Part shown: positions 2,771 through 49,216 of the stretch, in pieces | How positions within the stretch are numbered: position 1 is the stretch's first letter | How the letters are laid out: every line of letters starts with the position of its first letter | DNA from: Minisyncoccota bacterium | GTDB taxonomy: Bacteria > Patescibacteriota > Minisyncoccia > Phycocordibacterales > Phycocordibacteraceae | Direction: 5' to 3' | Length of the DNA: 64,000 nt | Assembly (NCBI GenBank): GCA_022841985.1 | Contig: JALHQL010000004.1 | Location: 1,726-65,725 of the forward strand | Translations under genes and position numbers: made by a program | The notes under the pieces: model-generated | Databases searched by the model: none | What the model was told of the DNA's origin: nothing | The model's input: the letters and a program-made list of their open reading frames with translations, nothing else

Positions 2771-2771
2771 T

Positions 2772-3407: not shown

Positions 3408-3408
3408 T

Positions 3409-6002: not shown

Positions 6003-6032
6003 AACACCTCGCGTAGGATATATACTATAGGC

Positions 6033-7028: not shown

Positions 7029-7519
7029 AAAAAATGAATTTTGTGGCAATCGTCCTGTTTCTTGGATTTACTCCTCTCTATGTGTTTGCTCAGGGTTTCG
7101 TCCCGCTCGCAGGAATTCCAGGACTTACCACAGGCGAGGTGGCGGGTTCAGGCAATCTTGCACTCTTTTTCAATAATCTCTATAAGTATCTCATTGGTCT
7201 CGCTGCCACGCTCGCAATCATTCAGATTATCTGGGGAGGAATTGCTATAGCAACCAACAAGGACGATGTCAGTAAAATACTTGACGAGAAAGGAAAAATT
7301 TACAATGCGATCTTCGGTCTTATACTAGTCCTCTCACCCGTACTTGTTTTTTCTATCATAAATCCGAACATCTTGAATCTCTCTCTTAACCTCCCGCCAC
7401 TTGGCACGACACCCCCAGCTCGTTCTTCGGCGCTATCTACAACAACTCCTACACAGGCGCTGCCTCAAACAGGAGAAACATCTGTCCTGTCTGGTACGGC
7501 CTTACCTATACAATTCTAA
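7025..7519 (+). CDS. pilin-like protein (VirB2/TrbC-like candidate)
   Basis: 164 aa; signal peptide 'MKKMNFVAIVLFLGFTPLYVFAQG', then two hydrophobic helices separated by short loop (IGLAATLAIIQIIWGGIAIA / IFGLILVLSPVLVFSII), Pro/Thr-rich tail. Confidence 0.45.
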   Translation: MKKMNFVAIVLFLGFTPLYVFAQGFVPLAGIPGLTTGEVAGSGNLALFFNNLYKYLIGLAATLAIIQIIWGGIAIATNKDDVSKILDEKGKIYNAIFGLILVLSPVLVFSIINPNILNLSLNLPPLGTTPPARSSALSTTTPTQALPQTGETSVLSGTALPIQF

Positions 7520-7522
7520 ATT

Positions 7523-8725: not shown

Positions 8726-9448
8726 TGCTTTGCTAGTCATTGCTCGGCGTACATACCATTCTTGCAATGCTCCTGCAATGTTTGTAGTGATGAAATAAAG
8801 CGCTATCGCGCTAGTTGTCGTGTAGGAAATAATTGCAATAATAAAAGGGAAGACGTATTTCAGCTGCAAACTCATGACTTTCTGAAAATCAGCCTGCATA
8901 CCGCCGAGCATCGAAGGCTTCATCGTCCCTGAAAGGGCCATATGTGCTTGAACAAACTGAGTGATGCCGGCCAATATCGCAAGAACAATACTTTTACCCA
9001 TCATTGAGATGAGCCCGAGAAATTCAAGAGAAATAGTATCTGGAACAGGAGTAAGCCCATAGAGCCGTGCGGTATTAATCACTGAAAATGGTTCATAAAA
9101 AAACACCCAATAGAGCGCGAACAGGACGGGAATCTGTATGAAAACCATGAGAATGCTTGCAAACGGGTTTACCTTTTCTGCACGATAGAGAGCGAGAGTT
9201 TCAAGCGCCTCTTTCTCTTTATTGCCCTTATATTTCTCTTTTAGATCCTTAATCTTTGGTTCCAGATCCCTCATCGCGATCTGTGTACGTGCTGCCGAAA
9301 GAGAGAAGGGAAGAAGAATAAGCCGAATAGCGACCGTGAGCAGAATAACGGCGATACCCACATCCGAACCGGGGATTAGAGCGGTCAGAGCGACTAGGGC
9401 ATTATAAATCGGATCATAGAAAGCACTGTAAAAGAAAGTTACAATCAC
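8717..9448 (-). CDS. yidC: membrane protein insertase YidC
   Basis: 243 aa; 'VILLTVAIRLILLPFS...', 'FIQIPVLFALYWVF' YidC/Oxa1 core; rpmH-rnpA-yidC synteny. Confidence 0.8.
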   Translation of the reverse strand: MIVTFFYSAFYDPIYNALVALTALIPGSDVGIAVILLTVAIRLILLPFSLSAARTQIAMRDLEPKIKDLKEKYKGNKEKEALETLALYRAEKVNPFASILMVFIQIPVLFALYWVFFYEPFSVINTARLYGLTPVPDTISLEFLGLISMMGKSIVLAILAGITQFVQAHMALSGTMKPSMLGGMQADFQKVMSLQLKYVFPFIIAIISYTTTSAIALYFITTNIAGALQEWYVRRAMTSKASQ

Positions 9449-9462
9449 AAGTCTATTCTACT

Positions 9463-9774
9463 CTATCGGCGAATTTTGGAAAGAAGATTGGCGAGTTCGC
9501 TTTTGACATCTTGATACGACATGCTGCTGACAGAGGATTTTGGGAAAACAATGAGTGACGCAGGGAGGGGGAGAGTTCGGAGCGCCGCAAGTACCCGACG
9601 CTTAATCAGGTGCCTGGTAACCGAGAGACGAGCAGTCTTTTTCGACACAATGACCGCATATCCTTTCGATTCTTTCGGAAAAATGATGCTTAGATTTGAG
9701 GACGAAAATCTCCGGCCTGTTGAAAGCGCTGTAGGGAAAACCGCACGCGAGAGCCGTTCTCGGCGAGGGAACAC
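9463..9774 (-). CDS. rnpA: ribonuclease P protein component
   Basis: 103 aa basic protein immediately downstream of rpmH; 'RLSRAVFPT...GRRFSSSNLSIIF...AVIVSKK..ARLSVTRHLIKRRV' matches RnpA layout. Confidence 0.65.
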   Translation of the reverse strand: MFPRRERLSRAVFPTALSTGRRFSSSNLSIIFPKESKGYAVIVSKKTARLSVTRHLIKRRVLAALRTLPLPASLIVFPKSSVSSMSYQDVKSELANLLSKIRR

Positions 9775-9779
9775 AAAAA

Positions 9780-9917
9780 TCAGGCAGTGAGGCGCGTACG
9801 GCCAATACGACGACGTTTCTGCACAATCTTACGGCCGGAGCTCGTTTTTGTTCGGACAAGGAAGCCGTGTGTTTTGGCTCGCTTACGTTTCTTCGGTTGA
9901 TAGGTTCGTTTGGACAT
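9780..9917 (-). CDS. rpmH: 50S ribosomal protein L34
   Basis: 45 aa not in ORF track (<60 aa): [45 protein letters not shown]; translated by hand from reverse complement. Confidence 0.85.
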
Positions 9918-9935
9918 GCTGGACGAAAAATTAGG

Positions 9936-9944
9936 TTATACACA
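9936..9944. promoter_or_regulatory. DnaA-box-like 9-mer (TTATACACA) upstream of dnaA
   Basis: matches TTWTNCACA consensus; single copy between rpmH and dnaA. Confidence 0.35.
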
Positions 9945-10015
9945 CAATACTAACAGTTTCTCCCCGAAACGCCAGAGTGCCTTGTCTAAAGAATCATCGT
10001 ATACTCCAAAGCATT

Positions 10016-11368
10016 ATGAACAAAGGGGATCCGAAGGAGTTGTGGGAATACGTTCTTACCCAGATCGAGTTATCTATATCCCCAGCAAACTTCAATACCT
10101 GGTTCCGTAACAGTTTTATCGTGAAGATTAGTGAGGATGGGGTGGTGCATATCGGCGTACCGAGTCAGTTCTTTAAGGATTGGTATCTTAAGAAATTTCA
10201 CACTTTGTTGTTGAAAATCATTCGAGATGTGTCGTATGAATTCCGTAATATCGAATATGTCATTGTAAAAGATGAAAATCGCAGACTCTCCAAAGAAGTT
10301 AAAAATGTGCGGGGAGCACTTGAGCTGCCTCTTGATGATTTTTATATCAATAAAAGCGACAATCTGAATCCGAGATATACATTTGATACATTTGTTATCG
10401 GATCCTTCAATAATCTCGCGTACGCGGCGGCACAAGCGGTGCTCGCACGTCCTGGAATAACCTACAACCCTCTTTTTATCTATGGTGATACTGGTCGCGG
10501 GAAAACACACCTTATCCAAGCTATTGGTAATCAATATAAGAAACAGTATCCCGGACAGAAAGTTTTCTATCTCACGTCTGAAAAATTTGTTGTTGATTAC
10601 ACCGATTCAGTGCAGGCAGGCACCGCCAACAGATTCAAAGATAAATATCGCCACTATGACCTTCTTATCATGGATGATATTCAATTTCTTTCAAAAAAAG
10701 AAAGGAGTGAGGAAGAATTGTTTCATCTCTTCAACGCTCTTCATGACATGAATAAGCAAATTATTTTCTCTTCCGATCGCTCTCCAATAGCCATTCCTGA
10801 TATTACTGAGCGTTTAAAGGGGCGATTAGCGAGTGGTATGACGATTGATATTGGGGAACCAGATCCGGAGTCACGGATGGCCATCGTACGGAAAAAAGCA
10901 GCTTCACATGGTGTATTACTATCGGATGAGGTTATTGAATATGTAGCGGTATCCATGAATGGTTCTATACGTGAATTAGAAGGTATGGTAAACAGTATTA
11001 TCTGTCACGCTCAAGTGAAAGGATTTGCGCCTGATATTATGGAAGTGCGACAATCCCTCCGCTCATTCACTCGTCCTCAAAAAAACATATCTATTAAAAA
11101 TATTGTTGATAAAATTGCGGAATTTTATAATATTGATGAAGAAAGTATCTATGAAAAAACAAGGAGGAGGGAAGTAGTACGGCCTCGACAGATCATTATG
11201 TATATTCTTCGAGAGGATTTTCATATATCCTATCCAACAATTGGCACAAAACTTGGTGGTCGTGATCATACAACTGTTATCCACTCCTGTGAGAAGATAA
11301 AGCGTGAAATGGTTGTGGATAGTGAACTTGAGAAAGAGATTCAAAATATTCGGACTCTTCTTGTATGA
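10016..11368 (+). CDS. dnaA: chromosomal replication initiator DnaA
   Basis: start at 'MNKGDPKELWEYVL'; AAA+ Walker A 'GDTGRGKTHL', Walker B 'LLIMDDIQFL', C-terminal DnaA-box-binding helix 'TTVIHSCEKI'. Confidence 0.9.
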   Translation: MNKGDPKELWEYVLTQIELSISPANFNTWFRNSFIVKISEDGVVHIGVPSQFFKDWYLKKFHTLLLKIIRDVSYEFRNIEYVIVKDENRRLSKEVKNVRGALELPLDDFYINKSDNLNPRYTFDTFVIGSFNNLAYAAAQAVLARPGITYNPLFIYGDTGRGKTHLIQAIGNQYKKQYPGQKVFYLTSEKFVVDYTDSVQAGTANRFKDKYRHYDLLIMDDIQFLSKKERSEEELFHLFNALHDMNKQIIFSSDRSPIAIPDITERLKGRLASGMTIDIGEPDPESRMAIVRKKAASHGVLLSDEVIEYVAVSMNGSIRELEGMVNSIICHAQVKGFAPDIMEVRQSLRSFTRPQKNISIKNIVDKIAEFYNIDEESIYEKTRRREVVRPRQIIMYILREDFHISYPTIGTKLGGRDHTTVIHSCEKIKREMVVDSELEKEIQNIRTLLV

Positions 11369-11480
11369 TTTTTATTTATACTCTATCCACATATTGTTTT
11401 AAAAATAAGGAATGTATATATCCAACTACTACCTCATATTTCAATGTTATCCACCTATCCACACCCTTAATAAGAATTGT
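11369..11480. promoter_or_regulatory. candidate oriC: AT-rich dnaA-dnaN spacer with three DnaA boxes
   Basis: ctatccaca (11383-11391), ttatccacc (11447-11455), ctatccaca (11455-11463); flanked by AT-rich stretches; classic dnaA-dnaN location. Confidence 0.6.
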
Positions 11481-12581
11481 ATGAATATTTCAATAGAAAA
11501 AAAGAAATTCTCAGAAGCTGTGCATATAGTGGCAAGATTCGCTCAACGAAAAATCACTACACTCCCCGCACTCTCTTCAATACTTATTATTGCAGGAGAT
11601 GATGGTATAAAAATGCGCGCAACAAATCTTGAAACAGGTATTGATTTTAAACTTAAAGGAGAATGTACGGAAAAAGGAGTTGTCGCAATTTCAGCATTAT
11701 TACTTCAACAAATAGCAAGTTCACTTACCCAAGAAGGGAAAATAATCCTAGAACACATAGGAGATATTGTTTCAATCACCAGCGGCACAAGTAAAAGTTC
11801 AATAAAAACGACACCTTATGATGATTTTCCCTCAATCCCATTTCCAGAAAGTTCAAAAAATAGAATAGTACTCCCTGGTAGTATTCTTCGTTCACTTTTT
11901 ACCACTATTGCCCCTTGCGCATCTTCTTCCACTGTTCGTCCTGAATTATCAAGTATATACCTCTCTATTGAAGGAGGAATATTAACTGCTGTGGCAACAG
12001 ATTCTTTTCGACTTGCTGAAAAGAAAGTACCGCTTACAAATAAAGGAATTCAAGGAAAGTTTCTTATTCCCGCAAAAAACGCTCTTGATATAGCCCAAGC
12101 ATTACCTAATGAGGATATTATTATGTCGTTTGATGAACACCAATGCGCGTTTATCTCAAATGATGGGATGCTTGTATCAAGATTAACAAATGCGGTATAT
12201 CCTGATTATCGGCAAATAATACCAAAAGAATCTGTTGTTGAAGCGATTGTTTTACGAAAAGATTTTGAAAATGCATTAAAACGAACAATTATCTTTTCAG
12301 ATTTATTTCAAAAAATACGCATCAATTTTGATCCAAAAAAGAATCTTTTTTCTTTTTTTACACGGAATGCTGATATTGGAGAATCAATAGAAACACTCCC
12401 AGCACGCATATCAGGAAGCGCTCTTGAACTCTCTTTTAATCATAGGTATCTTTCCGCCGTATTGTCGCTTACAGGATCGGAAAGCATTTCAATTCTTGCC
12501 GTAGGTATCGGACGCCCACTTATTATAAAAGGTGTTGGGGATACCTCTCTGCTTTATTTAGTATCTCCAATGAATCAATAA
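11481..12581 (+). CDS. dnaN: DNA polymerase III beta sliding clamp
   Basis: start at 'MNISIEKKKF'; three-domain ~366 aa clamp, 'IAPCASSSTVRPELSSIYLSIEGG' central region typical. Confidence 0.85.
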   Translation: MNISIEKKKFSEAVHIVARFAQRKITTLPALSSILIIAGDDGIKMRATNLETGIDFKLKGECTEKGVVAISALLLQQIASSLTQEGKIILEHIGDIVSITSGTSKSSIKTTPYDDFPSIPFPESSKNRIVLPGSILRSLFTTIAPCASSSTVRPELSSIYLSIEGGILTAVATDSFRLAEKKVPLTNKGIQGKFLIPAKNALDIAQALPNEDIIMSFDEHQCAFISNDGMLVSRLTNAVYPDYRQIIPKESVVEAIVLRKDFENALKRTIIFSDLFQKIRINFDPKKNLFSFFTRNADIGESIETLPARISGSALELSFNHRYLSAVLSLTGSESISILAVGIGRPLIIKGVGDTSLLYLVSPMNQ

Positions 12582-14737
12582 AAAGAAGTTGTAGAAGTTG
12601 AGGTTTTAGTAAGAGGCACTGGGAGCATAATCCCGCCTGAAAAAAGATCAGGGTGCATGGCATACCATGCAGTAACTCCATATTCCCAGTATTCAAATTG
12701 ACGATCCTCGGAAGGGTTAGTGGGAGTGGGTCCTTGAGGGTTATTTTTATCAGTCCAATATAATAAACTATGAGGAATAATACTTCCTTGTGTATCTGGA
12801 ATTCGCCAATTTCCTTGTAGCATCGGTGGAACAGAATCGAAGATAGGACTTGACTCACCAAAATATGTTTTTGGATATTTTGAGAGAGCGTAAGACATCA
12901 CTTTGTTCCACATTGGGGCCGCAATAAAACCTGCAACAGACTTCACCATAGGGGAGTTGTCGTTATTACCAACCCATACACCAATTGTAATAGAGGGGGT
13001 ATACCCAATAATCCATGCATCACGGGTGTCGTCTGTTGTACCTGTTTTCACAGCCACATCATATCCAGCGAAAGAAAGAGGGGAATTAAGAGGATATTCT
13101 GGAAGACGTGCGTAAGCGTTTGAGAGCATTGCAGACACATCTCGTGCGATATTTGTCGGTAGCACCACTGAAGATTCGGGTGAAAATTTGTAAAGCTCAT
13201 TTCCTGCCGCATCACTAATCTCAAGTACGCCAGTCGGAGTGTTGAGCACTCCATCATTTGCAAGAGCGGAATACGCGCCAGTAAGATCAAGTAGGCGCAC
13301 TTCGCCGCCTCCGAGTACGAATGTAAGTCCGTATTGGTTCGGGTCGCCAAGGGTTGTAAGGCCGAATGACTTCGCGAGATTGATAGCTTTTTGTATCCCA
13401 ACGAGATAGAGAGTTTTAATAGCTGGAATATTGATTGATTGGGCTAGTGCTGTTTCAAAAGTCATGGGCCCTCGGAAGGCATCGTCGTAGTTGGAGGGAG
13501 CATAACAAGGAGGGGTGTTATTTGTCGTATCCGACGGCTTGCATTCTGTCGAAAATTGCGTCGGGACGTCAAAAATGACGGTGTTGCGCGTGTAGCCGTT
13601 ACTCAGCGCAAGTGAGTAAATAAAAGGCTTCATGGTAGAACCAGGTTGGCGAGAGGATAGGGTGGCATTATATTGTCCGTCAATCTCGGTATCAAAGAAA
13701 TTGCGCGAACCAACCATTGTGAGGATTTGTCCGCTTGAAGGATCAATCGCAACAAGAGAGGCGTTCGAAGCGTTAAATTTTTTCACATTTTCAAGCGCAT
13801 ATGTACGGACAATTTCCTCAGCCTTTACTTGAAGATCCACATCAAGTGTCGTAGTAACTTTTAATCCGGACATAAGAGCTTTGGCGCCATACGTTTTCTC
13901 AAGTTGATCGAGGATATAAAAAACAAAATGAGGGGCGATGATTGCATTTCGGCCTGCGGGAGCAAAGGATACTTGTTCAGAAAGAGCTGCAGTATAGGCG
14001 GCCTCATCGATAAATCCGATTTCACGCATACGTTCGAGCACAAGATTTTTACGTGCAGTAAGCTCCGTTTGGTGGGTGCCATAGGGTGAATAATACGAAG
14101 GCGCTTGAATCATTGCTGCAAGGTATGCAGCTTGCGCGAGAGAAAGGTCTTTCGCAGGTTTGTTGAAGTACGCTGCGGCAGCAGCCTCGATGCCGTAGAG
14201 CGTACTCCCATACGGAATATTATTAAGATAGGTCTCAAGAATCTGATCTTTCGAATAGGATTGTTCTAATTTTATTGCAAGCATCCATTCGTTTATCTTT
14301 CGTATAACACTTTTTTGTCTGGTGAGAAGCTCATTCTTTACCACTTGCTGTGTGATGGTCGAACCTCCTTGCGAGAGAGCACCGCCAAGAGTGTTGGCGA
14401 ATAAGGCACGAATAATGGAGGTAATGCGAATGCCTCCATGCGCGTAGAAACTTGAATCCTCGATAGCGATAGTCGCGTTTATTGTATGTGGTGATATAGC
14501 ACTGAGTGGGACGATATTTCGTTTTGCATCTCGATTGTAATCATACAAAAGGACTTGCCCAGTACGGTCATAAATCTTAGTCGATTGATCGACTTGTCGA
14601 GAAGAAAATGAATTTATGTCCGGCACCTGGGTAGTGGCGACGACAAGCAGGATACCTCCTCCCACAAGGAATCCAAGTCCAAAAATAGTAAGCAGAGAAA
14701 CAAAAAGAATATGCCGCCATGAAGCCATACGCTTCAT
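12575..14737 (-). CDS. class A penicillin-binding protein (PBP1a: transglycosylase + transpeptidase)
   Basis: N-terminal TM; GT51 motifs 'IAIEDSSFYAHGGI', 'GGSTITQQVVKN'; transpeptidase 'STMKPF' (SxxK); ~80-aa Pro/Thr-rich C-terminal extension. Confidence 0.85.
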   Translation of the reverse strand: MKRMASWRHILFVSLLTIFGLGFLVGGGILLVVATTQVPDINSFSSRQVDQSTKIYDRTGQVLLYDYNRDAKRNIVPLSAISPHTINATIAIEDSSFYAHGGIRITSIIRALFANTLGGALSQGGSTITQQVVKNELLTRQKSVIRKINEWMLAIKLEQSYSKDQILETYLNNIPYGSTLYGIEAAAAAYFNKPAKDLSLAQAAYLAAMIQAPSYYSPYGTHQTELTARKNLVLERMREIGFIDEAAYTAALSEQVSFAPAGRNAIIAPHFVFYILDQLEKTYGAKALMSGLKVTTTLDVDLQVKAEEIVRTYALENVKKFNASNASLVAIDPSSGQILTMVGSRNFFDTEIDGQYNATLSSRQPGSTMKPFIYSLALSNGYTRNTVIFDVPTQFSTECKPSDTTNNTPPCYAPSNYDDAFRGPMTFETALAQSINIPAIKTLYLVGIQKAINLAKSFGLTTLGDPNQYGLTFVLGGGEVRLLDLTGAYSALANDGVLNTPTGVLEISDAAGNELYKFSPESSVVLPTNIARDVSAMLSNAYARLPEYPLNSPLSFAGYDVAVKTGTTDDTRDAWIIGYTPSITIGVWVGNNDNSPMVKSVAGFIAAPMWNKVMSYALSKYPKTYFGESSPIFDSVPPMLQGNWRIPDTQGSIIPHSLLYWTDKNNPQGPTPTNPSEDRQFEYWEYGVTAWYAMHPDLFSGGIMLPVPLTKTSTSTTSFY

Positions 14738-24435: not shown

Positions 24436-24508
24436 GCGCCCGTAGCTCAGTTGGTAGAGCAGATCCCTTTTAAGGATAAGGTCCCGCGTTCGATCCGCGG
24501 CGGGCGCA
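24436..24508 (+). tRNA. tRNA-Lys (anticodon TTT)
   Basis: 73 nt cloverleaf folded by hand: acceptor GCGCCCG/CGGGCGC, D-arm GCTC-AGTTGGTA-GAGC, anticodon loop CTTTTAA, T-arm CCGCG-TTCGATC-CGCGG; CCA not encoded. Confidence 0.85.
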
Positions 24509-24509
24509 C

Positions 24510-25334
24510 ATGAACGATTTCAAGAAGCAGTGTATAGCCCTGCGAAAGAAGGGTTACAGCATTAACGAAATCATGAAAGCGACGGGGAAAGCGAAGGGTT
24601 CTATCTATGTACATATAAAAGATATCCCATTGAGCAAGAAGCGCCTGAAGCAGTATAGAGAAGCTTCTGGGAAATGGATCAGGAAATTTGCACTCGCACG
24701 AAAAGGCAGGAGTGCGCGCTCATTCCGGCCATTTGATACATGGTCTGCAGAGACTGTTCTTTTGGTTGCCCACCTGCTTTTTGACGGTGAGATTGCAAAA
24801 GGGAAATGCGTGTATAACAATCGTAGTCGAGTGCTCATCGAGCGTGTCGAAAGGCTCCTGCGCGTAGTATATGACTTTGAGCCAAAACGATACAAAAATG
24901 AAGCGACAGGAGTGTGGAAAACAAATTACTATAATGTAGCTCTCAGTGCGTATTTGAAAGGCAAATCGAAAGAATTGCTGCGACAAATCAAAGGAATGCC
25001 GCTCGATTTAAAACTGGAGTTTGTGCGTGCATTTTTTGACGACGAAGGATGTATGGATTTCCGACCGGGGCGCAAAAAAGTTCGCGGATATCAGAAAGAT
25101 ATGCGGATCCTAAAGTTAGTCAAAGCACTTTTAATTGATTTTGGCATCACTGCGCGTATAGCACTTCCTAACGAAGTGGTAATCGTGGGAAAAGAAAATT
25201 TAATTCGATTTGAACAAAAAATAAATTTCTCGCCGGGTGTTTCCATAAACGGGGATCGCACCAACAGCATCTGGAAGAAACATATAGAGAAAAGAGAACT
25301 GCTCAAACAAGCTATAAAATCTTTTAAAAGCTAG
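24510..25334 (+). CDS. LAGLIDADG-family homing endonuclease (two motifs) with N-terminal HTH-like region
   Basis: 274 aa; motif 1 'LVAHLLFDGEIAKG', motif 2 'FVRAFFDDEGCMDF'; ATG starts 2 nt after tRNA-Lys 3' end; AT-rich relative to neighbours. Confidence 0.6.
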   Translation: MNDFKKQCIALRKKGYSINEIMKATGKAKGSIYVHIKDIPLSKKRLKQYREASGKWIRKFALARKGRSARSFRPFDTWSAETVLLVAHLLFDGEIAKGKCVYNNRSRVLIERVERLLRVVYDFEPKRYKNEATGVWKTNYYNVALSAYLKGKSKELLRQIKGMPLDLKLEFVRAFFDDEGCMDFRPGRKKVRGYQKDMRILKLVKALLIDFGITARIALPNEVVIVGKENLIRFEQKINFSPGVSINGDRTNSIWKKHIEKRELLKQAIKSFKS

Positions 25335-28455: not shown

Positions 28456-28466
28456 TCATCAAATAA

Positions 28467-28497
28467 CAAAAACGCCCCTTATGGGGCGTTTTTGTTA
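28467..28497. terminator. rho-independent terminator (rpsT / tRNA-Arg, bidirectional)
   Basis: aacgcccc-ttat-ggggcgtt flanked by A-run and T-run. Confidence 0.7.
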
Positions 28498-28501
28498 TTT
28501 G

Positions 28502-28573
28502 TGCTCTCGGCCGGAATCGAACCGGCATCAGCCCCTTCGGAGGGGGCTATCCTATCCGTTGAACGACGAGAGC
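28502..28573 (-). tRNA. tRNA-Arg (anticodon CCG)
   Basis: 72 nt on reverse strand: acceptor GCTCTCG/CGAGAGC, anticodon stem GCCCC/GGGGC with loop CTCCGAA, T-arm GCCGG-TTCGATT-CCGGC; folded by hand. Confidence 0.8.
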
Positions 28574-28705
28574 GACATTAGTTTCTTAGGGAGCGGAGCG
28601 AGTTAGAGACTAAGAAGTGCCACATGCCGGATTTGAGTATTTGGCATGTGGCCGTAACTCACAATACTATAATTCCTCGAGAGGATTGCGGTTAGACTTG
28701 CCGAT

Positions 28706-28727
28706 CGGTATACCTGGTATACTACCG
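28706..28727. promoter_or_regulatory. palindromic element upstream of cupredoxin gene
   Basis: cGGTATACCtGGTATACtaccg (GGTATACC self-complementary, repeated half-site); also 10-bp inverted repeat gccacatgcc...ggcatgtggc at 28621-28657. Confidence 0.3.
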
Positions 28728-28759
28728 TGCATAGAGATTATTTCTTGTAAAAATACAGT

Positions 28760-29188
28760 ATGAACACAAAAATTATTTCAGCATTTGTCATTATTGTTTT
28801 CGCGGGAATAGCGGTGTCTATGTTTAACAGTCAAGATAAGGGTTCTGAAATGAACGCAAATGAGATTCAGGAGCAAAATAAAGAGCAGACAGTTAAGGAA
28901 TTCTCGATGGATTCGTATGTGAATATGGTTGACGGAAAGCCAGCTCCGAGATTTTCACTCGAGAATATTACGGTTAAAAAAGGGGACAAGGTAAAAATAA
29001 AAATAAACACAATCAATGGGACTCACGACTTCGTCATAGACGAGTTTAATGTGCGTTCCGAGACTCCGACTGGCAAAGAAACAGTAGTAGAATTCACTGC
29101 CGATAAAGCGGGTGAGTTTGTGTATTACTGCAATATGCCAGGACATCGCGCAAATGGTCACTGGGGAACGCTGACCGTGCTTGAATAA
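28760..29188 (+). CDS. membrane-anchored cupredoxin-like (type-1 copper) domain protein
   Basis: 142 aa; N-terminal TM; 'GTHDFVIDEF' and 'YYCNMPGHRANGHWGTL' (His...Cys-x4-His ligand set typical of plastocyanin/azurin-like fold); AT-rich gene. Confidence 0.55.
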   Translation: MNTKIISAFVIIVFAGIAVSMFNSQDKGSEMNANEIQEQNKEQTVKEFSMDSYVNMVDGKPAPRFSLENITVKKGDKVKIKINTINGTHDFVIDEFNVRSETPTGKETVVEFTADKAGEFVYYCNMPGHRANGHWGTLTVLE

Positions 29189-29190
29189 AA

Positions 29191-30492
29191 ATGCTACTGG
29201 GAACTAAGAGCAGGAAAACGCTTTTACTGCGTCATATTCTAGTCGGATCGACCGCTACGGCACTGGCGTACGGCATATTCCTTTCGCGGGACGAGTTTCC
29301 ATTTGACGTCAGTATATGGCGAGCTTTGGGAGACACTGCTTTTATTTTTTTATTTTTCACTTTAGCGGTTGGCCCGTTAGCAAAGTTGTGGAAGCCGGCC
29401 TTGCGATTTGTGTCGTGGCGCCGCGAAACAGGTATCTGGTTTGCTCTTCTTGCGCTTGCTCACTTTATTCGCGTAATCGATTATGCGCTCCTAGAGCCGG
29501 GTATTGAACTGGCGCGACTCCTTGGTTTCGTGGCTCTTTTCTGGGCTCTAGTACTTGCGGCAACATCTTCAGATCGCGCGGTGAATTTCTTGGGTCCTTC
29601 TGCATGGAAGTGGTTGCATGGAATGGCATATGTGATTTTTTATCTTGTCGCCGCCCATGCGATGTATTTTCTATTTTGGCACTACCCGGAAACAAACTGG
29701 TTTCAGTATGCATATGTAGGTATGGTGTTCGCTGTACCACTGCTTCAGATTGCCGCTTTTGTTAAGGAGGTAGTTCGACAAAGAGCCGGGAAAGTTATTC
29801 TTGAAACCAAGAAACTACAGCTGCCAATTTTGGAACAAAGAATTATTGCAGAAAAAACATGTGAAATTTCCTTTGATCTGTCTGGGAAAGAATTTGAATT
29901 TTTAGCGGGGCAATATATTCGAGTGGGCGTACCTACGCTTCTGCACCCTGATCCAAGAGGGTCATCGCGGCTTTTCTCTCTCACTTCTTCGCCAACAGAT
30001 GTAAAAAGAATTACAGTGGCATTTCGAAATTCCGGTAGTGGATTTAAAAAAACTCTAATGGAATTACTGCCTGGTTCTCCTGTCAGTATAGAAGGTCCGT
30101 TCGGATACCTTACTCTTCCCAAAGACGATACTCGCCCTTTGGTTTTTATAGCTGGGGGAATTGGCATTACTCCATTCATGAGCATGATTCGTTTTGTTAC
30201 CAAGCAAAAAACTCCTCACAAGATAACTTTGTTGTATGCCAATAGGACTGTCGAAAACGCTGCATATATCGAAGAATTGACAACAATTGCTAAACAAAAT
30301 CCGCTTTTTTCATTACAGAATCGGTTTGGACGTATTGATGCAGAGTTTATACAGAAAACAGTACAGGATCTTGATAGCGCGGCGTGGTATATCGTCGGAC
30401 TCCCAGTCATGGTAGCTGATATGCACAGCCTTCTTTTGCAGCTCGGTGTGAAAGAAGACGCAATTTATTTCGAGGATTTTACTGGCTACTGA
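29191..30492 (+). CDS. ferric-reductase-like transmembrane domain fused to FAD/NAD(P)-binding (FNR-like) oxidoreductase (NOX/Fre/MsrQ-FNR family)
   Basis: 433 aa; 6 TM with His in TM3 and His-x13-His pair 'HGMAYVIFYLVAAH'; FAD motif 'RLFSLTSSP'; NAD motif 'FIAGGIGITPF' and 'GPFG'. Confidence 0.65.
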   Translation: MLLGTKSRKTLLLRHILVGSTATALAYGIFLSRDEFPFDVSIWRALGDTAFIFLFFTLAVGPLAKLWKPALRFVSWRRETGIWFALLALAHFIRVIDYALLEPGIELARLLGFVALFWALVLAATSSDRAVNFLGPSAWKWLHGMAYVIFYLVAAHAMYFLFWHYPETNWFQYAYVGMVFAVPLLQIAAFVKEVVRQRAGKVILETKKLQLPILEQRIIAEKTCEISFDLSGKEFEFLAGQYIRVGVPTLLHPDPRGSSRLFSLTSSPTDVKRITVAFRNSGSGFKKTLMELLPGSPVSIEGPFGYLTLPKDDTRPLVFIAGGIGITPFMSMIRFVTKQKTPHKITLLYANRTVENAAYIEELTTIAKQNPLFSLQNRFGRIDAEFIQKTVQDLDSAAWYIVGLPVMVADMHSLLLQLGVKEDAIYFEDFTGY

Positions 30493-30550
30493 TACTAAGT
30501 TGTCACGGGTACGCTGCGGGATAATAGATTTTAGGTTAGAGTGGTGCTAT

Positions 30551-30623
30551 GGGCGATTAGCTCAGTTGGTAGAGCAACCCCTTTACACGGGGAAGGTCAC
30601 AGGTTCGAGTCCTGTATCGCCCA
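30551..30623 (+). tRNA. tRNA-Val (anticodon TAC)
   Basis: 73 nt: acceptor GGGCGAT/ATCGCCC, D-arm GCTC-AGTTGGTA-GAGC, anticodon loop TTTACAC, T-arm ACAGG-TTCGAGT-CCTGT. Confidence 0.85.
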
Positions 30624-30662
30624 CTTGAAACCATAAGTAATATCGGACAGGTTGGAACAACT

Positions 30663-32930: not shown

Positions 32931-33836
32931 GTGGTAGTGATGGTGCAGAGAAAAGAAGAACTGTACCCAAAGAACGCTCTCTTCATGCTCGTTGCGCATG
33001 TTGTTGGTCTCTACGGTTTCTACGCCGCGATATCTGGCCAATGGGGAAAAGAAACACTCATCCTTGGGGCAGTTATGTTCTGTGTCAGCGGACTTGGTAT
33101 CACTGTCGGGTACCATCGCTACTTTACCCATCGTTCTTTCAAGTGCGGAAAAGTACTGCAGACAATCCTCATGATTTGTGGAACGACTGCAGTTCAGGAC
33201 AGTATCATGAACTGGGTTTCGGATCACAAGATGCATCATACGAATACTGACAGAGATGGGGATCCGTACAATGCTGCGCGAGGTTCCTTGTGGGCACATT
33301 GCGGCTGGATCCTTTACAAGGATCTGACGAGAAAGAAGGATTACAGCACAGCTGCTCATTTGATGGAGGACTCGGAGACTAGAAGGATTGTAAATTTTCA
33401 GCATGCGTATTATCACACGCTGGCGATCCTGTTCTCGGGGTTCGTTCCCGTTCTTATAGCGTCTCTCTGGAACGATCCTCTTGGCGGTCTTGTGTTCGCC
33501 GGATTCTCGCGGTTGATTGCTGTGTGGCATATGACCTTCTGCATAAACAGTCTTGCTCACAGGAAGCATTGGGGAAGCAGACAGCCATATACGCGAGCAA
33601 ATTCATCTCAGGACAGTTGGCTGGTTTCCCTCGTTACGTTCGGAGAGGGGTATCACAATTACCACCACGCTTTTCCAGGGGATTATCGAAATGGTCCGTA
33701 TTGGTACAACTTCGATCCATCCAAGTGGTTGATTTTCTGCTTGTTAAATTTTGGATTGACCTGGGATCTTAATCGGGTGCCCAAGGAGAAGATAGAAAGA
33801 GCTCGTAACGCAGTTCTTCGCTCGGATAATAATTAG
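32931..33836 (+). CDS. membrane fatty-acid desaturase (acyl-CoA/acyl-lipid delta-9 desaturase family)
   Basis: 301 aa; three His boxes 'HRYFTH', 'HKMHH', 'HNYHHAFP'; 4 TM helices. Confidence 0.8.
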   Translation: MVVMVQRKEELYPKNALFMLVAHVVGLYGFYAAISGQWGKETLILGAVMFCVSGLGITVGYHRYFTHRSFKCGKVLQTILMICGTTAVQDSIMNWVSDHKMHHTNTDRDGDPYNAARGSLWAHCGWILYKDLTRKKDYSTAAHLMEDSETRRIVNFQHAYYHTLAILFSGFVPVLIASLWNDPLGGLVFAGFSRLIAVWHMTFCINSLAHRKHWGSRQPYTRANSSQDSWLVSLVTFGEGYHNYHHAFPGDYRNGPYWYNFDPSKWLIFCLLNFGLTWDLNRVPKEKIERARNAVLRSDNN

Positions 33837-45856: not shown

Positions 45857-48800
45857 ATGGGAGTTCCGGAAAAGTCAGAGGCGACAAAACGGGAGGAGTC
45901 CATCCTCGCGTTTTGGGAGCGCGACCGCATTTTCGAAAAAACGCTGCAGAAGAAATCACCGAAGGGCGACTTTGTTTTTTATGAGGGGCCGCCAACGGCC
46001 AATGGAAAGCCGGGTATTCATCATCTTGAAAGTCGTGCTTTTAAAGACGCTATTCCACGCTATAAGACGATGCGCGGCTATCGTGTGAATCGTCGCGCTG
46101 GTTGGGATACTCACGGGCTTCCTGTAGAACTTCAAATCGAGAAAGAATTAGGTTTTTCTGGCAAGAAAGACATCGAGCAGTACGGCATCGCCGCGTTTAA
46201 CAAGAAGTGTCGAGAGAGTGTCTTTACCTACATCGATCTTTGGGAGAAGTTTACCAAACGCATCGGCTACTGGGTCGATGAGAGCAAAGCTTACTTTACG
46301 TTTGATAGCGCATATATGGAGGTGGTGTGGCATCTCTTTGCTCAGACAGCAAAGGACGGACGACTGTATAAAGATTATAGAATTGTGCCGTGGTGTCCGC
46401 GCTGTGGGACGGCGCTTTCTTCCCACGAACTTGCTCAGGGCTATGCGGATGTAAAGGATCTAACTATTATCGCTAGGTTTGAATTGGCAGATGAGCCAGG
46501 GACGTATCTGCTTGCGTGGACGACAACCCCATGGACTCTTCCAGGGAATGTCGCGCTTGCGGTTAATTCGGACTTGACATACGCGAAATATACGTGGGAG
46601 GGAGAATCTTTTATCATGGCAAAAGATCTTGCACATAAATACCCAGGACAGTTAGTTGAGGAGTTTTTGGGAAAAAATCTTGTCGGGAAGAGATATAAAC
46701 CCTTGTATACTTTTGCAAAAGATCTTGCAGCTGCAAGTGAGATGTCAAAATTTGAGAAGGCGTTTCAAGTGTATGCGGCAGATTTTGTAACAACCGAAGA
46801 CGGCACGGGGATCGTACATATCGCGCCGATGTATGGACAGGACGATTTTGAACTCGGAAATAAAAACGGATTGCCGAAAGTGCACCTTGTTTCTCCGGAA
46901 GGGAAATTTGTTACGGGCACCGGCCCTTTAGAAGGAATGATGGTTACCGAAGAGGGGACGTCGGTCGAAATATTAAAAGATCTCCAGGTGCGAAGTCTAG
47001 TATTCAAAAAAGAGTCATACGCACACACGTATCCGTTTTGCTGGCGCTGCAAGACACGGCTCATCTATTACGCACGTGACTCGTGGTATATCCGCATGCA
47101 GGATTTGCGGGCAAAGCTCGTAGCTGAGAATAAAAAGATTCATTGGGAACCGGAATATATACGCGAAGGTCGCATGGGTGAGTGGCTTTCAAATGCAAAA
47201 GATTGGGCGATAAGTCGAGAGCGGTATTGGGGTACGCCGCTTCCGGTGTGGCGCAGTGCAGAGGGAAACGAACAGCTTGTTATTGGTTCGGTTGATGAGT
47301 TGAAAAAATATACGAAGAAATCCGGTAATACGTATTTCGTCATGCGGCATGGCGAAGCTGAGAATAATGTGAAGAGGGTCGTAAGTTCAGACCCTTCTGT
47401 CAGCAAGTTAACAGAGATGGGGAGAGGTCAGGTCTATGCATCCGCCGCCTCCCTTAAGAGAACTGGTATCGATGTGATATTTGCGTCTCCATTTCTTCGC
47501 ACGAAGGAAACTGCAGAAATTGTCGCCGCTGAACTTGGTGTTGATAAGACATCAATTGTTTTTGATGAGCGTTTGCGTGAGCTTGGTTTCGGTCAGCTTT
47601 CCGGGAAATCGTACGATGAATTTCTTGCCTATCGTGTAAAGCATAACCCAGGTCCTGCGGAGCCTATGATGGATGGAGAAAGTTATGAAGATGTGAAGCG
47701 TCGTTTCGGGGAGTTCATTTACGAGATAGAAAAGTCAGAAAAAAATAAGCGCATTCTTATTGTGACCCACACCGTGGGTATCGAGGCTCTTACGGCGGTT
47801 GCGCAAGGCGGGGATGCGGATGTTTTTTTAGAGATTGGAAGAACTTCTCATTTCAAAATGGGCGGTGTCCATGATTTGAATTTCGTTTCATTGCCGCACA
47901 ATGAGGAGTATGAGCTCGATCTGCACAGGCCGTATATCGATGATGTGGTGCTCGTATCCGAGAAGGGGACTGAGTTACGACGGGTTTCTGAGGTTATGGA
48001 TGTTTGGTTTGACTCCGGAGCAATGCCGTTTGCACAGGCGGCAAAGGATCGAAAGAATGAGTCGCTTGAAACGTTCTTAAAGAAAATTGAGTACCCCGCT
48101 GACTTCATTAGTGAAGCTATTGATCAAACTCGTGGGTGGTTCTATACACTTCTTGCTGTGGGAACTCTTTCAGGACGAGGCGCCGCTTTCAAGAATGTTA
48201 TTTCCCTCGGGCACTTGCTCGACGCTGCTGGACAGAAGATGAGCAAGTCGAAGGGTAATGTAGTTGATCCATGGGTAGAGATGGAGAGGTGGGGCGCTGA
48301 TACGATTCGTTTTTGGATGTACAGCGTTACTCAGCCAGGCGATTCGAAAAATTACGATGAGAAGACGGTAAAGGAGTCTGCAAAGGTTCTTTCATGGGTC
48401 GAGAACAGTGCAAAGTTTTTTGAGCTCTTCAAAGAGGTGTCCAAAAAACAAAGCCCAGTGTCTGTTATGGATCAGTGGATGATAGTGCGCACAAATCAAA
48501 CGATTTCAGTCGTTACGAAATCTATGGATGCATACCAGCCATTTGAAGCTACGCGAGCGATAGCGAACTTAGCGGAAGATCTTTCTCAGTGGTACGTACG
48601 GCGTGTTCGTGACCGTGTGCGTGAGGGTGATAGTGCTGCAATTGCGACCCTCCAGGGCGTACTTCGTAATTTGGCTCTCATGCTTGCGCCTTTTGCTCCT
48701 TTTTTGGCGGAAGATATTTTTGCAAGGGTTAAAGAAGAGGGTGATCCTGTCAGTGTGCATCTTGCTCACTGGCCTCGAGGATCCGAGACATTTTGGCAGA

Positions 48801-49216
48801 AATTATTTGCCCAGGGGAGGAAAGGGGTTTTGCTTGAGGATATGGCGCGAGTGCGTTCTCTTGCATCAGAAGCGCTTCAAATGCGTCAAAAGTCGGGTAT
48901 TAAAGTGCGCCAGCCCCTCGCGACTCTCACGGTTCCAGACGCTCTTTCGCCAGAGCTTGCACACATTCTTGCTGAAGAGGTGAATGTAAAAGAAGTTGTT
49001 GTGGGTACAGAGCTTGTACTCGATACGAATCTCACGCCGGAGCTTATTAAGGAGGGTGACGAGCGAGATTTTGCGCGCGCAGTCGCCGAGGCACGCAAGG
49101 CAGAAGGATTTTCTCCGAAAGATAAGGCGCGTGCGGAAATGACTATAGAAGGGAAACATTCCGTCACACTCTCAACTGGGGTGACTCGGTTCAATCTCAT
49201 TCGCGATGCGACATAA
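45857..49216 (+). CDS. ileS: isoleucine--tRNA ligase with inserted histidine-phosphatase (PGAM-like) domain
   Basis: 1119 aa; '[13 protein letters not shown]' (HIGH-like), 'WDTHGLPVE', 'KMSKSKGN'; ~190-aa insert (nt ~47325-47900) with '[11 protein letters not shown]', '[11 protein letters not shown]', 'IVTHTVGI' = histidine phosphatase superfamily motifs, between 'SVDELKKY' and 'DLHRPYIDD'. Confidence 0.9.

Follow-up and report, generated by a model that had tools for sequence, protein, structure and literature searches.

A cupredoxin coupled to an MsrQ-type ferric reductase-FNR fusion: a candidate quinone-independent electron-export module in a CPR bacterium

How could a CPR bacterium deliver electrons from NAD(P)H to a copper protein outside its membrane? 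In two CPR genomics papers, the electron route to the CPR cupredoxin that is thought to feed NirK is given as unknown ("by an unknown means"; PMC5581439). The question is raised anew by two adjacent genes in a 64-kb stretch of DNA, here called the window, from a host that is Kaiserbacteria-like as judged by RecA. The nearest named RecA matches are to Patescibacteria, Kaiserbacteria and Paceibacterota at 88-93% identity, in agreement with the CPR-type genome surmised in an earlier note on this DNA. Such a host presumably has neither an outer membrane nor a quinone pool. We argue below that the two genes probably form one operon for a minimal, quinone-independent transmembrane electron-export module.

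Both genes are encoded on the forward strand and are separated by a stop-to-start gap of 2 nt (TAA-AA-ATG). The first (28760..29188) encodes a membrane-anchored extracytoplasmic cupredoxin of 142 aa, and the second (29191..30492) a protein of 433 aa in which an MsrQ/YedZ-type domain is fused to a Fre/FNR-like module. The pair is bounded upstream by tRNA-Arg(CCG) on the reverse strand (28501..28573) and downstream by tRNA-Val(TAC) on the forward strand (30551..30624), with the 5' ends of both tRNAs pointing toward the gene pair. ORF calls and ARAGORN placed the two ORFs and both tRNAs where the earlier note had located them, and the motifs it had quoted (GTHDF, YYCNMPGHRANGHW, RLFSLTSSP, GGIGITPF and GPFG) were each found in the translations. 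A perfect inverted repeat of 19 bp between rpsT and tRNA-Arg (28460..28501) resembles a bidirectional terminator. The promoter region contains the sequence TGGTATACT on the forward strand (28715..28723), which aligns with TG-TTATAAT in the related loci L088 (88% identity) and L089 and probably acts as an extended -10 box. The GGTATACC-based palindrome previously described at 28706..28727 reads CGGTATACCTGGTATACTACCG, that is, two copies of GGTATAC with 9 nt between them, and a role as a regulatory element finds no backing in the relative with 88% identity, which has TG-TTATAAT at the aligned positions. We discarded it as an operator because it is absent from L088 and L089 and overlaps the -10 box. 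Likewise, an inverted repeat of 10 bp at 28619..28652, which is stronger than the supposed palindrome, is not conserved.

It had also been proposed that the pair is an AT-rich islet acquired horizontally between tRNA-Arg and tRNA-Val. Its GC content is indeed below the window mean (43.5% vs 47.9%, the 6th percentile of sliding windows), but the deviation is weak, since dnaA and dnaN in the same window have a higher AT content and codon usage is typical: the two genes have codon-usage distances B of 0.29 and 0.30 as compared to a mean of 0.34 (61 window genes compared), and their GC3 z-scores are -0.65 and -1.3. No att-like repeats other than 10-nt chance matches flank the pair, and no integrase was found in the annotation of the window. 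In L088, the downstream context including tRNA-Val is kept in the same place, but the upstream tRNAs differ, and across about 90 loci of the family adjacency to a tRNA is seen in only three lineages. The native-like composition and codon usage, the lack of att repeats and the different upstream tRNAs in the relative thus speak against horizontal acquisition at these tRNAs. A tRNA-targeted genomic island fails on the integrase, on direct att repeats from a tRNA 3' end and on foreign composition.

In the smaller protein, aa 7-22 form an N-terminal anchor and aa 28-40 a disordered acidic linker, which is followed by the cupredoxin domain (aa 45-141). The domain is recognized by Pfam (Cupredoxin_1, PF13473, 1.9e-10, 41.1 bits vs a cut-off of 27; Copper-bind, PF00127, 8e-6, 26.6 vs 21.2), and its core is modeled by AlphaFold with a pLDDT above 94. 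Its closest solved relatives in both sequence and fold searches are 6tfd, 2dv6 and 1iby, and the nearest of these is the electron-donating tethered domain of a NirK (6e-22), which supports a role for the cupredoxin as an electron carrier. The N-terminus has a Lys followed by the TM helix and the acidic linker, and a possible lipobox was seen in 25 of 120 homologs; from the signal anchor and the lipobox variants, the cupredoxin domain is predicted to face outward.

The codons for the predicted copper ligands fall within 29024..29161 on the forward strand: H89 (29024-26), C124 (29129-31), H129 (29144-46) and the axial H134 (29159-61). The first three do not vary among 35 cupredoxin sequences and, together with the fold match, represent the equatorial His-Cys-His set of type 1 (blue) copper proteins. 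The axial position is occupied by His in 97 and by Gln in 23 of the 120 homologs and by Met in none; in alignments, H134 takes the place of the axial Met in the tethered domain of HdNiR (6tfd, 2dv6) and pairs with the His of the HPKNIH loop in nitrosocyanin. The plastocyanin/azurin-like arrangement described earlier therefore holds for the two His and the Cys but not for the axial Met, which is replaced by His or Gln. The predicted copper site would be a natural 2His+Cys site with an axial His or Gln, and such an axial-His site could be catalytic or copper-handling rather than purely an electron carrier, as in the debate on nitrosocyanin. Membership in two other families was rejected. Some sources name the homologs as CuA domains or cytochrome oxidase subunit II, but the binuclear CuA site has two Cys (C-x3-C), whereas here a single Cys is invariant, the loop reads C-x4-H and the CoxB score is 27 against a cut-off of 148. 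Nitrosocyanin itself requires a ligand set of Cys, two His and Glu, with the Glu where this protein has H89, and TIGR03096 scores 37 against a cut-off of 143. The cupredoxin family comprises 644 matches at E <= 0.001, and its named members come from CPR, DPANN archaea and WOR-3. In most of these genomes no fusion gene adjoins the cupredoxin, which must there rely on other donors or serve other roles.

The membrane half of the larger protein (aa 1-198; 29191..29784, forward strand) was identified as an MsrQ/YedZ-type ferric-reductase domain by BLASTP, NCBIfam and AlphaFold. The six TM helices previously proposed are borne out by the AlphaFold model, which shows six long helices (pLDDT 88.9). 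BLASTP against E. coli MsrQ gave 32% identity (E 5e-9) with the RR pair, H91, H151 and H164 in register. The NCBIfam MsrQ match (5e-9) reaches 36 bits, with the cut-off at 130, and MsrQ proper (NF003831) was rejected on this score and on the lack of an MsrP-like gene in the window or at close loci. Ferric_reduct (PF01794) scores 20.7 bits against a cut-off of 28 and more distant family members carry precomputed hits to it; the MsrQ alignment and the fold agree with a ferric-reductase identity. A single-sequence search of the PDB with the TM domain gave no match.

Seven residues of this half, R77, R78, H91, S127, W139, H143 and H156, are invariant in 32 homologs. The earlier note had read the domain as a di-haem NOX type with a His-x13-His pair in TM5, but the spacing is H143-x12-H156, and only H91 is invariant in TM3, with R77 located 14 residues N-terminal of it. 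An Arg in place of the first TM3 His defines the YedZ/STEAP signature (PMC3591440), and by the criteria for the YedZ/MsrQ/STEAP group (Zhang et al. 2013; FEBS J 2025) the fusion carries this signature, with the conserved Arg and three retained His. The published NOX filters (Hajjar et al. 2017, PMC5676040) demand four haem His, arranged as His-x12/14-His in TM3 and TM5, of which the fusion has three, and an FAD motif H[PSA]F[TS][LIMV], where it reads R260-L-F-S-L with an R260 that is invariant across homologs; only the third filter agrees, through G323-I-G-I-T-P328 and the six modeled helices. H143 and H156 align with H129 and H142 of SpNOX. The flavin-pocket set of MsrQ (R77, R78, S135, W147, H151) is matched by R77, R78, S127, W139 and H143. 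E. coli MsrQ binds a single haem b (-250 mV) together with FMN (-340 mV), and the substitutions R77A, R78A and H151A each lead to the loss of FMN (PMC12525009). By homology to this protein, we infer that the membrane domain has one outer haem b and a flavin pocket, although H143, which we assign to the pocket on the MsrQ model, could help to ligate a second haem.

The remaining half (aa ~205-433; 29803..30492, forward strand) is a Fre/FNR-like NAD(P)H:flavin oxidoreductase according to Pfam, NCBIfam and PDB searches, with the features RLFS (260-263), GGIGITP (322-328) and a C-terminal F430-x-G-Y433. Of the Pfam families anticipated in the earlier note, those for the cupredoxin were recovered, Ferric_reduct stayed below its cut-off and FAD_binding_8 was absent from the matches of the fusion. 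The NAD-binding domain matched NAD_binding_1 (2e-13, 51 bits vs a cut-off of 22), and FAD_binding_6 was weak (E 2e-3; 18.7 bits, just below the 21.1 cut-off). With RLFS as the RxYS/T-type flavin motif, GGIGITP as the GxGxxP nucleotide motif and NAD_binding_1, in addition to FAD_binding_6 just under its cut-off, the protein has the hallmarks of an FNR-like flavin reductase. NCBIfam matches were of the BenC, Hmp and Fre types, and PDB matches were the SpNOX DH domain, T4moF, the BenC reductase and Fre. The positively charged N-terminus and the six TM helices place the FNR half in the cytoplasm.

The coupling of the two genes extends beyond the window. Several CPR lineages have kept the pair in close linkage, with gaps between partner and fusion of 1-33 nt in the window, L001, L002, L088 and L103, and in L003 a cupredoxin of the family with an axial Gln is located directly downstream of the fusion. 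A full-length alignment scan of GTDB genomes gave mostly FNR-only proteins among the matches listed, and metagenomes were scanned with a TM-only alignment. In six loci (L007, L097, L098, L099, L104, L105), the upstream slot instead holds a membrane-anchored cytochrome b5, in which the HPP and PHS histidines are invariant and which is predicted from its N-terminal signal anchor to face outward. The replacement of the cupredoxin by cytochrome b5 argues for outward delivery to a one-electron carrier. The core path suggested in the earlier note, from cytoplasmic NAD(P)H via the transmembrane FRD-FNR protein to an extracytoplasmic copper protein, thus gains support from synteny in CPR lineages and from this exchange of partners. 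Other neighbors of family members include a glutaredoxin in L001, an MsrB and a DsbA-like protein in L003, a rhodanese, a ZIP transporter close to L005, and SOD within 5 kb in L002, L104/L105 and L162. The wider split family is located in clusters rich in copper proteins, including Cys-less DUF7282-cupredoxin-like proteins in 35 loci, a Cupredoxin_1 protein of 130 aa in 20, DUF305, and a MauE-multicopper oxidase in six.

In the mechanism that we propose, NAD(P)H would be oxidised in the cytoplasm by the Fre/FNR-like half of the 433-aa protein, and flavin would carry the electrons into the inner pocket of the MsrQ/STEAP-type six-helix domain (R77, R78, S127, W139, H143). They would next pass to the single outer haem b, with H91 and H156 as ligands, and the exposed haem would reduce the anchored cupredoxin encoded immediately upstream. 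The cupredoxin would in turn hand single electrons on to an acceptor whose gene lies elsewhere, most likely a surface copper enzyme such as NirK or, failing that, a target in oxidant defence or repair. The annotation of the whole window shows no NirK, multicopper oxidase or oxidase that could serve as terminal acceptor, and NirK is absent within 5 kb at all of the about 90 family loci. Likewise, neither NirK nor FRD or FNR genes occur near the cupredoxins in the neighborhoods inspected in Magasanikbacteria, SR1/Absconditabacteria, Aenigmarchaeota and Nomurabacteria, or around the cupredoxin on an 826-kb CPR contig. Our most far-reaching suggestion is tentative and rather doubtful: the pair might be the missing entry point of a minimal, quinone- and bc1-free extracytoplasmic chain in CPR, running from NAD(P)H through a Fre-MsrQ-type mono-haem flavocytochrome and a surface cupredoxin or cytochrome b5 to NirK or another surface copper enzyme.

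We also considered the possibility that the pair is an analogue of MsrPQ, exporting reducing power for oxidant defence or repair at the surface, with the cupredoxin as an adaptor rather than a respiratory-type sink and with oxidised surface proteins, Cu(II), superoxide or peroxide-derived species as targets. The TM domain is of the MsrQ type, and periplasmic repair of Met sulfoxide is the only established role of MsrQ. Furthermore, the glutaredoxin, SOD, MsrB, DsbA-like and rhodanese neighbors point in this direction, as do the Fe/Mn SOD (71..661) and the O2-dependent desaturase encoded in the window, from which we conclude that the organism meets oxygen. However, the SOD, to which the earlier note had linked the pair, is present but 28 kb away, which makes the link weak; no MsrP-like molybdoenzyme or secreted Msr is encoded in the window or at close loci; the MsrB in L003 has no N-terminal signal or anchor sequence; and both cupredoxins and cytochrome b5 carry single electrons and do not act as reductases of thiols or sulfoxides. 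We regard this explanation as unlikely. Less probable still is a FRE/STEAP-like metal reductase for uptake or homeostasis, in which the cupredoxin-like protein would bind or pass on Cu(I)/Cu(II) or Fe at the surface. The STEAP/YedZ-type signature, the copper-protein-rich clusters of the wider split family and the ZIP transporter near L005 would fit such a function, but the complete buried-type 2His+Cys+axial site is electron-carrier-like rather than chaperone-like, the exchange for cytochrome b5 in sister lineages suits electron transfer and not metal hand-over, and no metal transporter adjoins the pair in the window.

That the fusion is a true bacterial NOX, turning O2 into superoxide at the outer haem with an unrelated or regulatory cupredoxin, seems very improbable to us. 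S. pneumoniae NOX is its nearest solved structure by sequence (1e-24) and fold (Foldseek 1e-18) and has the same TM, FAD and NAD(P)H architecture; yet two of the three published filters disagree (three His; RLFSL), the Arg signature separates YedZ/STEAP from NOX, and the conserved close linkage to the gene of an acceptor protein speaks against O2 being the intended target of the electrons. A donor for the membrane fatty-acid desaturase, analogous to the chain of cytochrome b5 reductase, b5 and desaturase, is harder still to credit. An FA_desaturase gene lies 2.4 kb downstream of the pair in the window and in L088, an FA_hydroxylase gene lies two genes downstream in L005, cytochrome b5 is the partner in sister lineages, and the FNR half shares Pfam families with cytochrome b5 reductase. 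However, the di-iron sites of desaturases face the cytoplasm, whereas an outward orientation is predicted for the domains of the cupredoxin and b5, and the linkage to the desaturase is confined to one lineage (2 of the 90 loci), with two tRNAs and three housekeeping genes in between.

A conserved NAD(P)H-driven transmembrane reductase in translational coupling with such a cupredoxin, in a Kaiserbacteria-like genome, represents a concrete and testable candidate for the missing electron route to CPR cupredoxins. In both structure papers on SpNOX from 2024, the physiological acceptor of bacterial FRD-FNR fusions is left open and a protein acceptor is suspected; the genomic coupling described here names two candidates, cupredoxin and cytochrome b5. 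The fusion joins a NOX architecture to a membrane domain of the MsrQ/STEAP mono-haem/flavin type, a combination not found among the long forms by Zhang et al. (2013), and as, in effect, a natural single-chain Fre-MsrQ it may be of use for studying the mechanism of flavin shuttling in MsrQ. The natural 2His+Cys+His/Gln copper site, if real, bears on redox tuning in bioinorganic chemistry. Should the pair turn out to be the entry point suggested above, supposedly purely fermentative CPR cells could dump reducing equivalents, physiological protein acceptors would be known for the first time for a bacterial FRD-FNR ("NOX-like") fusion, and the 2His+Cys+axial-His site would be an unprecedented natural copper site.

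Among known systems, E. coli Fre-MsrQ(-MsrP), a NOX-like chain of two components in which MsrQ is the membrane flavocytochrome, shares with the fusion the TM signature (RR77/78, H91, and S135, W147, H151 and H164 as counterparts of S127, W139, H143 and H156), a donor that is an FNR-family NAD(P)H flavin reductase, and an exposed outer haem from which electrons pass to an acceptor protein beyond the membrane. Here, however, the TM domain carries the reductase as a covalent C-terminal extension, a cupredoxin or cytochrome b5, not the molybdoenzyme MsrP, is encoded as the acceptor, and the host is a CPR bacterium. SpNOX (8qq7/8qt6) likewise has a six-TM FRD followed by a C-terminal FAD/NAD(P)H dehydrogenase, and an exposed outer haem with a suspected protein acceptor; its exposed haem directly reduces cytochrome c, and its authors suggest a protein acceptor. 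In contrast to the fusion, it has four haem His (H69/H129, H82/H142) and two haems, whereas the fusion has Arg at the equivalent of H69, a flavin pocket on the MsrQ model and an FAD motif of RLFS rather than HPFT type. The STEAP metalloreductases, eukaryotic proteins related to YedZ, resemble the fusion in having one haem and an inner flavin site (on the MsrQ model for the fusion), the conserved Arg in place of the first TM3 His and an NAD(P)H dehydrogenase fused on the cytoplasmic side, but this dehydrogenase lies at the N-terminus and belongs to another type than FNR, Gln occupies the position of H143, and electrons go to chelates of Fe(III) or Cu(II) instead of to a dedicated protein.

The best match to the cupredoxin, also by fold (Foldseek 2e-10), is the tethered domain of the three-domain NirK from Hyphomicrobium denitrificans (6tfd, 2dv6), with which it shares an identical loop spacing, YYC-x4-H-x4-X, and the same upstream His motif. 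The tethered domain is fused to NirK and has an axial Met, whereas the protein in the window is free-standing and membrane-anchored, and its axial residue is His, replaced by Gln in 19% of the homologs. Nitrosocyanin from Nitrosomonas europaea (1iby), described as the sole natural cupredoxin with His as fourth ligand, is the third-best match (1e-11), and that His aligns with H134. It differs in its C-x2-H spacing and in a Glu that replaces the equatorial His aligned with H89, whereas both equatorial His are kept in the family studied here. The cupredoxin falls between the tethered domain of the three-domain NirK and nitrosocyanin.

The cupredoxin ORF (142 aa; 28760..29188, plus strand) and the fusion ORF (433 aa; 29191..30492, plus strand) meet at the junction TAA-AA-ATG, with two bases between them, and the pair is flanked by tRNA-Arg(ccg) on one side (28501..28573, minus strand) and by tRNA-Val(tac) on the other (30551..30624, plus strand). 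The coordinates and sequence features recorded for the pair in the earlier note were accurate, and every motif quoted there was found. In the Pfam searches, the fusion begins with a ferric-reductase-like membrane domain, for which the Ferric_reduct score of 20.7 bits falls under the threshold of 28. FAD and NAD(P)H domains come next, with FAD_binding_6 and NAD_binding_1 (2e-13) as the best-fitting models; the FAD_binding_8 domain named in the note was not among the matches. The AlphaFold model (pLDDT 88.9) has six long transmembrane helices and then an FNR fold, and since the N-terminus is positively charged (MLLGTKSRKTLLLRH) and the number of helices is even, the FNR half is predicted to reside in the cytoplasm.

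The fusion had been taken for a di-haem NOX-type protein, and its closest solved structure is that of the S. pneumoniae NOX (1e-24 by sequence; 1e-18 by Foldseek). In a profile alignment H143 and H156 of the fusion correspond to H129 and H142 of SpNOX, the residues through which TM5 ligates the inner and the outer haem; the histidine pair in TM5 is present, but with the spacing H143-x12-H156 and not x13. TM3 contains the outer-haem histidine (H91) only, with an arginine at the inner position. Arginine in place of the first TM3 histidine is the YedZ/STEAP signature, and all four histidines are found in the bacterial long, FNR-fused forms (Zhang et al., 2013; PMC3591440). Published search filters for NOX proteins combine four histidines, the FAD motif H[PSA]F[TS][LIMV] and an NADPH motif (PMC5676040). 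The fusion has the NADPH motif (GIGITP), but it lacks the four histidines and reads RLFSL in place of the FAD motif. The arginine and the two failed filters speak against the di-haem interpretation, and we consider it highly improbable that the fusion is a true NOX.

Residues 1-200 of the fusion are 32% identical to E. coli MsrQ (BLASTP, E 5e-9), with RR77/78, H91, H143 and H156 in register with RR77/78, H91, H151 and H164 of MsrQ. Mutagenesis of the E. coli protein showed one haem b (-250 mV) and an FMN (-340 mV) in the inner pocket, which is lined by S135 and W147, and the binding of FMN was abolished by each of the substitutions R77A, R78A and H151A (PMC12525009). The counterparts of these pocket residues in the fusion (R77, R78, S127, W139 and H143) are all invariant. 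Across an alignment of 32 full-length homologs, the invariant positions were R77, R78, E79, H91, T125-S-S-D128, W139-K-W-L-H143 and H156 in the membrane half and R260, S263, G323/G325/P328 and F430 in the cytoplasmic half, while Y433 was kept in at least 90% of the sequences. Based on the MsrQ register, the YedZ/STEAP arginine, the invariant pocket and the two failed NOX filters, we suggest that the di-haem NOX reading should be replaced by that of a putative single-chain Fre-MsrQ, which by homology would contain one outer haem and an inner flavin site.

The partner protein matched Cupredoxin_1 (1.9e-10) and Copper-bind (8e-6), both beyond their cut-offs, and in its model an N-terminal helix (aa 7-22) is joined through a disordered acidic linker to a cupredoxin domain with pLDDT >94. 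Because of this helix, and because a possible lipobox replaces the anchor in many homologs, the domain is predicted to be extracytoplasmic. The copper ligands had been described as plastocyanin/azurin-like, and this holds for H89, C124 and H129, which are invariant in 35 sequences; the axial methionine is missing, since M126 of the quoted CNMPGH loop varies across these sequences and position 134 is His in 97 of 120 homologs, Gln in the remaining 23 and never Met. The spacing C-x4-H-x4-Q is that of stellacyanin. Some sources label the homologs as "cytochrome oxidase subunit II" or "nitrous oxide reductase"; these labels are wrong, as the presence of only one Cys excludes a CuA site. The nearest solved relative is the cupredoxin domain tethered at the N-terminus of three-domain Cu nitrite reductases from Hyphomicrobium denitrificans (6tfd, 6e-22; 2dv6, 1.5e-19), in which the loop reads YYC-SLPG-H-RQAG-M, so that the axial Met aligns with H134. 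Nitrosocyanin is also among the closest solved relatives (1e-11), and its fourth-ligand His likewise aligns with H134. The Foldseek ordering of these relatives broadly agrees with the ordering by sequence.

The order of cupredoxin followed by fusion recurs in the CPR-type contigs of L001, L002, L088/L089 and L103, with gaps of 1-33 nt and with flanking genes that vary between loci. L164 is similar, with the membrane and FNR halves in separate, overlapping ORFs, and in L003, a 43%-identical relative, a family cupredoxin with an axial Gln forms the C-terminal domain of the next gene downstream. In the upstream slot of six loci (L007, L097, L098, L099, L104 and L105), which represent at least four lineages, there is instead a cytochrome b5-domain protein of the same construction, with an N-terminal anchor, an acidic linker and a redox domain, in which the HPP and PHS histidines are invariant. 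Two unrelated one-electron carriers, cupredoxin and cytochrome b5, both predicted to face outward, can take each other's place in the translationally coupled slot, and this swap is the strongest argument that the task of the fusion is to reduce its partner carrier.

More distant relatives are usually adjacent split genes for an MsrQ-like protein (~237 aa) and an FNR (~226 aa), as in L003 (3434..8592), L005 (334..7276) and about 35 of the loci L097-L176. Their neighbors, which form a recurrent cluster, include DUF7282-cupredoxin-like proteins (35 loci), which are Cys-less with the motif MWVASDxHPAH...HDH, 130-aa Cupredoxin_1 proteins (20), DsbA-like proteins (19), DUF3105 (18), rhodanese (10) and a MauE-multicopper oxidase fusion (6), and now and then GSDH, DUF305 or SOD. 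Taken with the pair, these neighbors point to a general theme of NAD(P)H-driven electron supply to predicted extra-membrane, mostly copper-type or redox proteins, of which the pair in the window is the minimal version. GSDH-family genes (PQQ-type sugar dehydrogenase-like) adjoin family members in L002 (7312..8469), L003 (11788..13050) and L100 (3827..4999), the last with an apparent N-terminal membrane anchor and situated in the upstream partner slot. In the metagenomic locus L162 (1768..3406), 3 nt separate a gene for an Fe/Mn SOD from a stand-alone MsrQ-like gene downstream of it, and a cupredoxin gene follows directly, an arrangement that looks like an SOD-FRD-cupredoxin operon.

The host had been attributed to the CPR, rightly so: the RecA encoded in the window shares 88-93% identity with proteins named Patescibacteria, Candidatus Kaiserbacteria or Paceibacterota by the sources, and the T4SS-pilin/PrgI genes, the LAGLIDADG ORF and the LTD-domain protein that the window also carries are, in our view, typical of CPR genomes. 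The type-IV-secretion-like block (2348..8725) contains, besides the PrgI-family and T4SS pilin-like proteins, a TraG/VirB4-like ATPase and several membrane proteins that lack annotation. The LAGLIDADG_3 homing-endonuclease-like ORF (24510..25334) begins at the very next base after tRNA-Lys(ttt) (24436..24509). Elsewhere in the window, a class I aminoacyl-tRNA synthetase of 1119 aa (45857..49216) has a histidine-phosphatase domain (His_Phos_1) inserted at aa 494-657, between the halves of its catalytic domain.

We found little to suggest that the pair is a horizontally acquired islet bounded by tRNAs. Its GC content is low, as claimed (43.5%, the 6th percentile of sliding windows), but GC3 is unremarkable for both the cupredoxin gene (0.434, z -0.65) and the fusion gene (0.392, z -1.3), the codon-usage distances of 0.29 and 0.30 are under the mean of 0.34, and two core genes, dnaA and dnaN, have a higher AT content. 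The latter (9977..11368 and 11412..12581) form the most AT-rich part of the window (8000..12600; GC 0.36-0.40), with a GC3 of 0.215 in dnaN, and, as the cumulative GC skew has its minimum at about 8-9 kb, replication probably starts near 9-10 kb. Neither att-like repeats nor an integrase were found at the pair, and the 5' ends of both tRNAs face it. The 88%-identical relative, L088, keeps the downstream context (tRNA-Val, uppS, rluD, rplS, tRNA-Leu and the desaturase), but its upstream tRNAs differ. A tRNA or tmRNA lies beside family loci in three lineages and is absent at L003, L005, L097, L098, L103, L104 and L108. The data thus lend no support to a recent horizontal acquisition; given the varied contexts, the genes may have moved within the CPR at an earlier time. 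The supposed palindrome upstream of the cupredoxin gene consists of two GGTATAC copies that are not conserved; as it aligns with TG-TTATAAT in the relative, it is probably an extended -10 box. Between tRNA-Arg and the cupredoxin gene there is also a perfect 10-bp inverted repeat, GCCACATGCC-N14-GGCATGTGGC (28619..28652), which is not conserved in L088. The membrane fatty-acid desaturase, conserved downstream of rplS and tRNA-Leu in this CPR lineage (32931..33836 in the window; 4726..5619 in L088), is an O2-dependent di-iron enzyme, and together with a Fe/Mn SOD (71..661) it suggests that the host meets oxygen.

In the proposed mechanism and ALTERNATIVES, electrons would pass from NAD(P)H to the FNR flavin, the inner flavin pocket, the H91/H156 haem and finally the surface cupredoxin, a core path that we regard as fairly probable. 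It would be comfortably downhill if the haem resembles that of MsrQ (-250 mV), since reported cupredoxin potentials range from +90 to +680 mV. For the next step, we favor a surface copper enzyme such as NirK as the acceptor, because the closest structural relative of the cupredoxin is a NirK electron-donor domain, because the host is Kaiserbacteria-like and because published accounts have a gap at precisely this point; nirK plus cupredoxin was reported in two CPR groups, one of them the Kaiserbacteria (Danczak et al.). What speaks against such an acceptor is that the genes show no linkage to NirK: there were no NirK-like ORFs within 5 kb of about 90 family loci, and no FRD, FNR or NirK near stand-alone family cupredoxins in Magasanikbacteria, SR1, Aenigmarchaeota, Nomurabacteria and an 826-kb CPR contig. 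The full annotation of the 64-kb window contained no NirK, multicopper oxidase, haem-copper oxidase, bd oxidase or MsrP. The pair might otherwise be a surface supply line for oxidant defence or repair, which seems unlikely to us, and a role as a metal reductase or in copper handling is more doubtful still, while we give hardly any credence to the idea that it donates electrons to the desaturase.

Among 1.84 billion representatives at 50% identity, full-length fusions formed only five clusters, with two more high-scoring matches that are shorter and lack the N-terminal part. Otherwise, the FNR module is frequent as a stand-alone protein of ~228 aa, and the same subfamily is N-terminal in proteins of 500-900 aa, several with PAS and histidine-kinase domains. 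Those with a Pfam annotation (among P0169-P0172, P0175, P0183 and many matches of 500-900 aa) are from Patescibacteria and have PAS domains, in some cases with histidine-kinase domains as well, which suggests redox sensors linked to NAD(P)H or flavin.

Every domain of the fusion is known, and relatives are already auto-labelled "ferredoxin-NADP reductase / YedYZ haem-binding subunit"; a full-text search found no literature joining Patescibacteria with ferric reductase. In the searchable literature, three features appear to be undescribed: a "long form," with an FNR fused at its C-terminus, whose membrane domain bears the MsrQ/STEAP signature; the conserved coupling of this fusion, in CPR bacteria, to an extracytoplasmic partner that can be either a cupredoxin or a cytochrome b5; and the Met-less cupredoxin family with an axial His or Gln, which with 644 matches at E <= 0.001 is far more widespread than the fusion. 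We found no description of the predicted ligand set, two equatorial His, Cys and an axial His, for a natural protein. A recent review-style introduction names nitrosocyanin as the one natural cupredoxin whose fourth ligand is a His, and in nitrosocyanin a Glu stands for one equatorial His, whereas the family described here keeps both.
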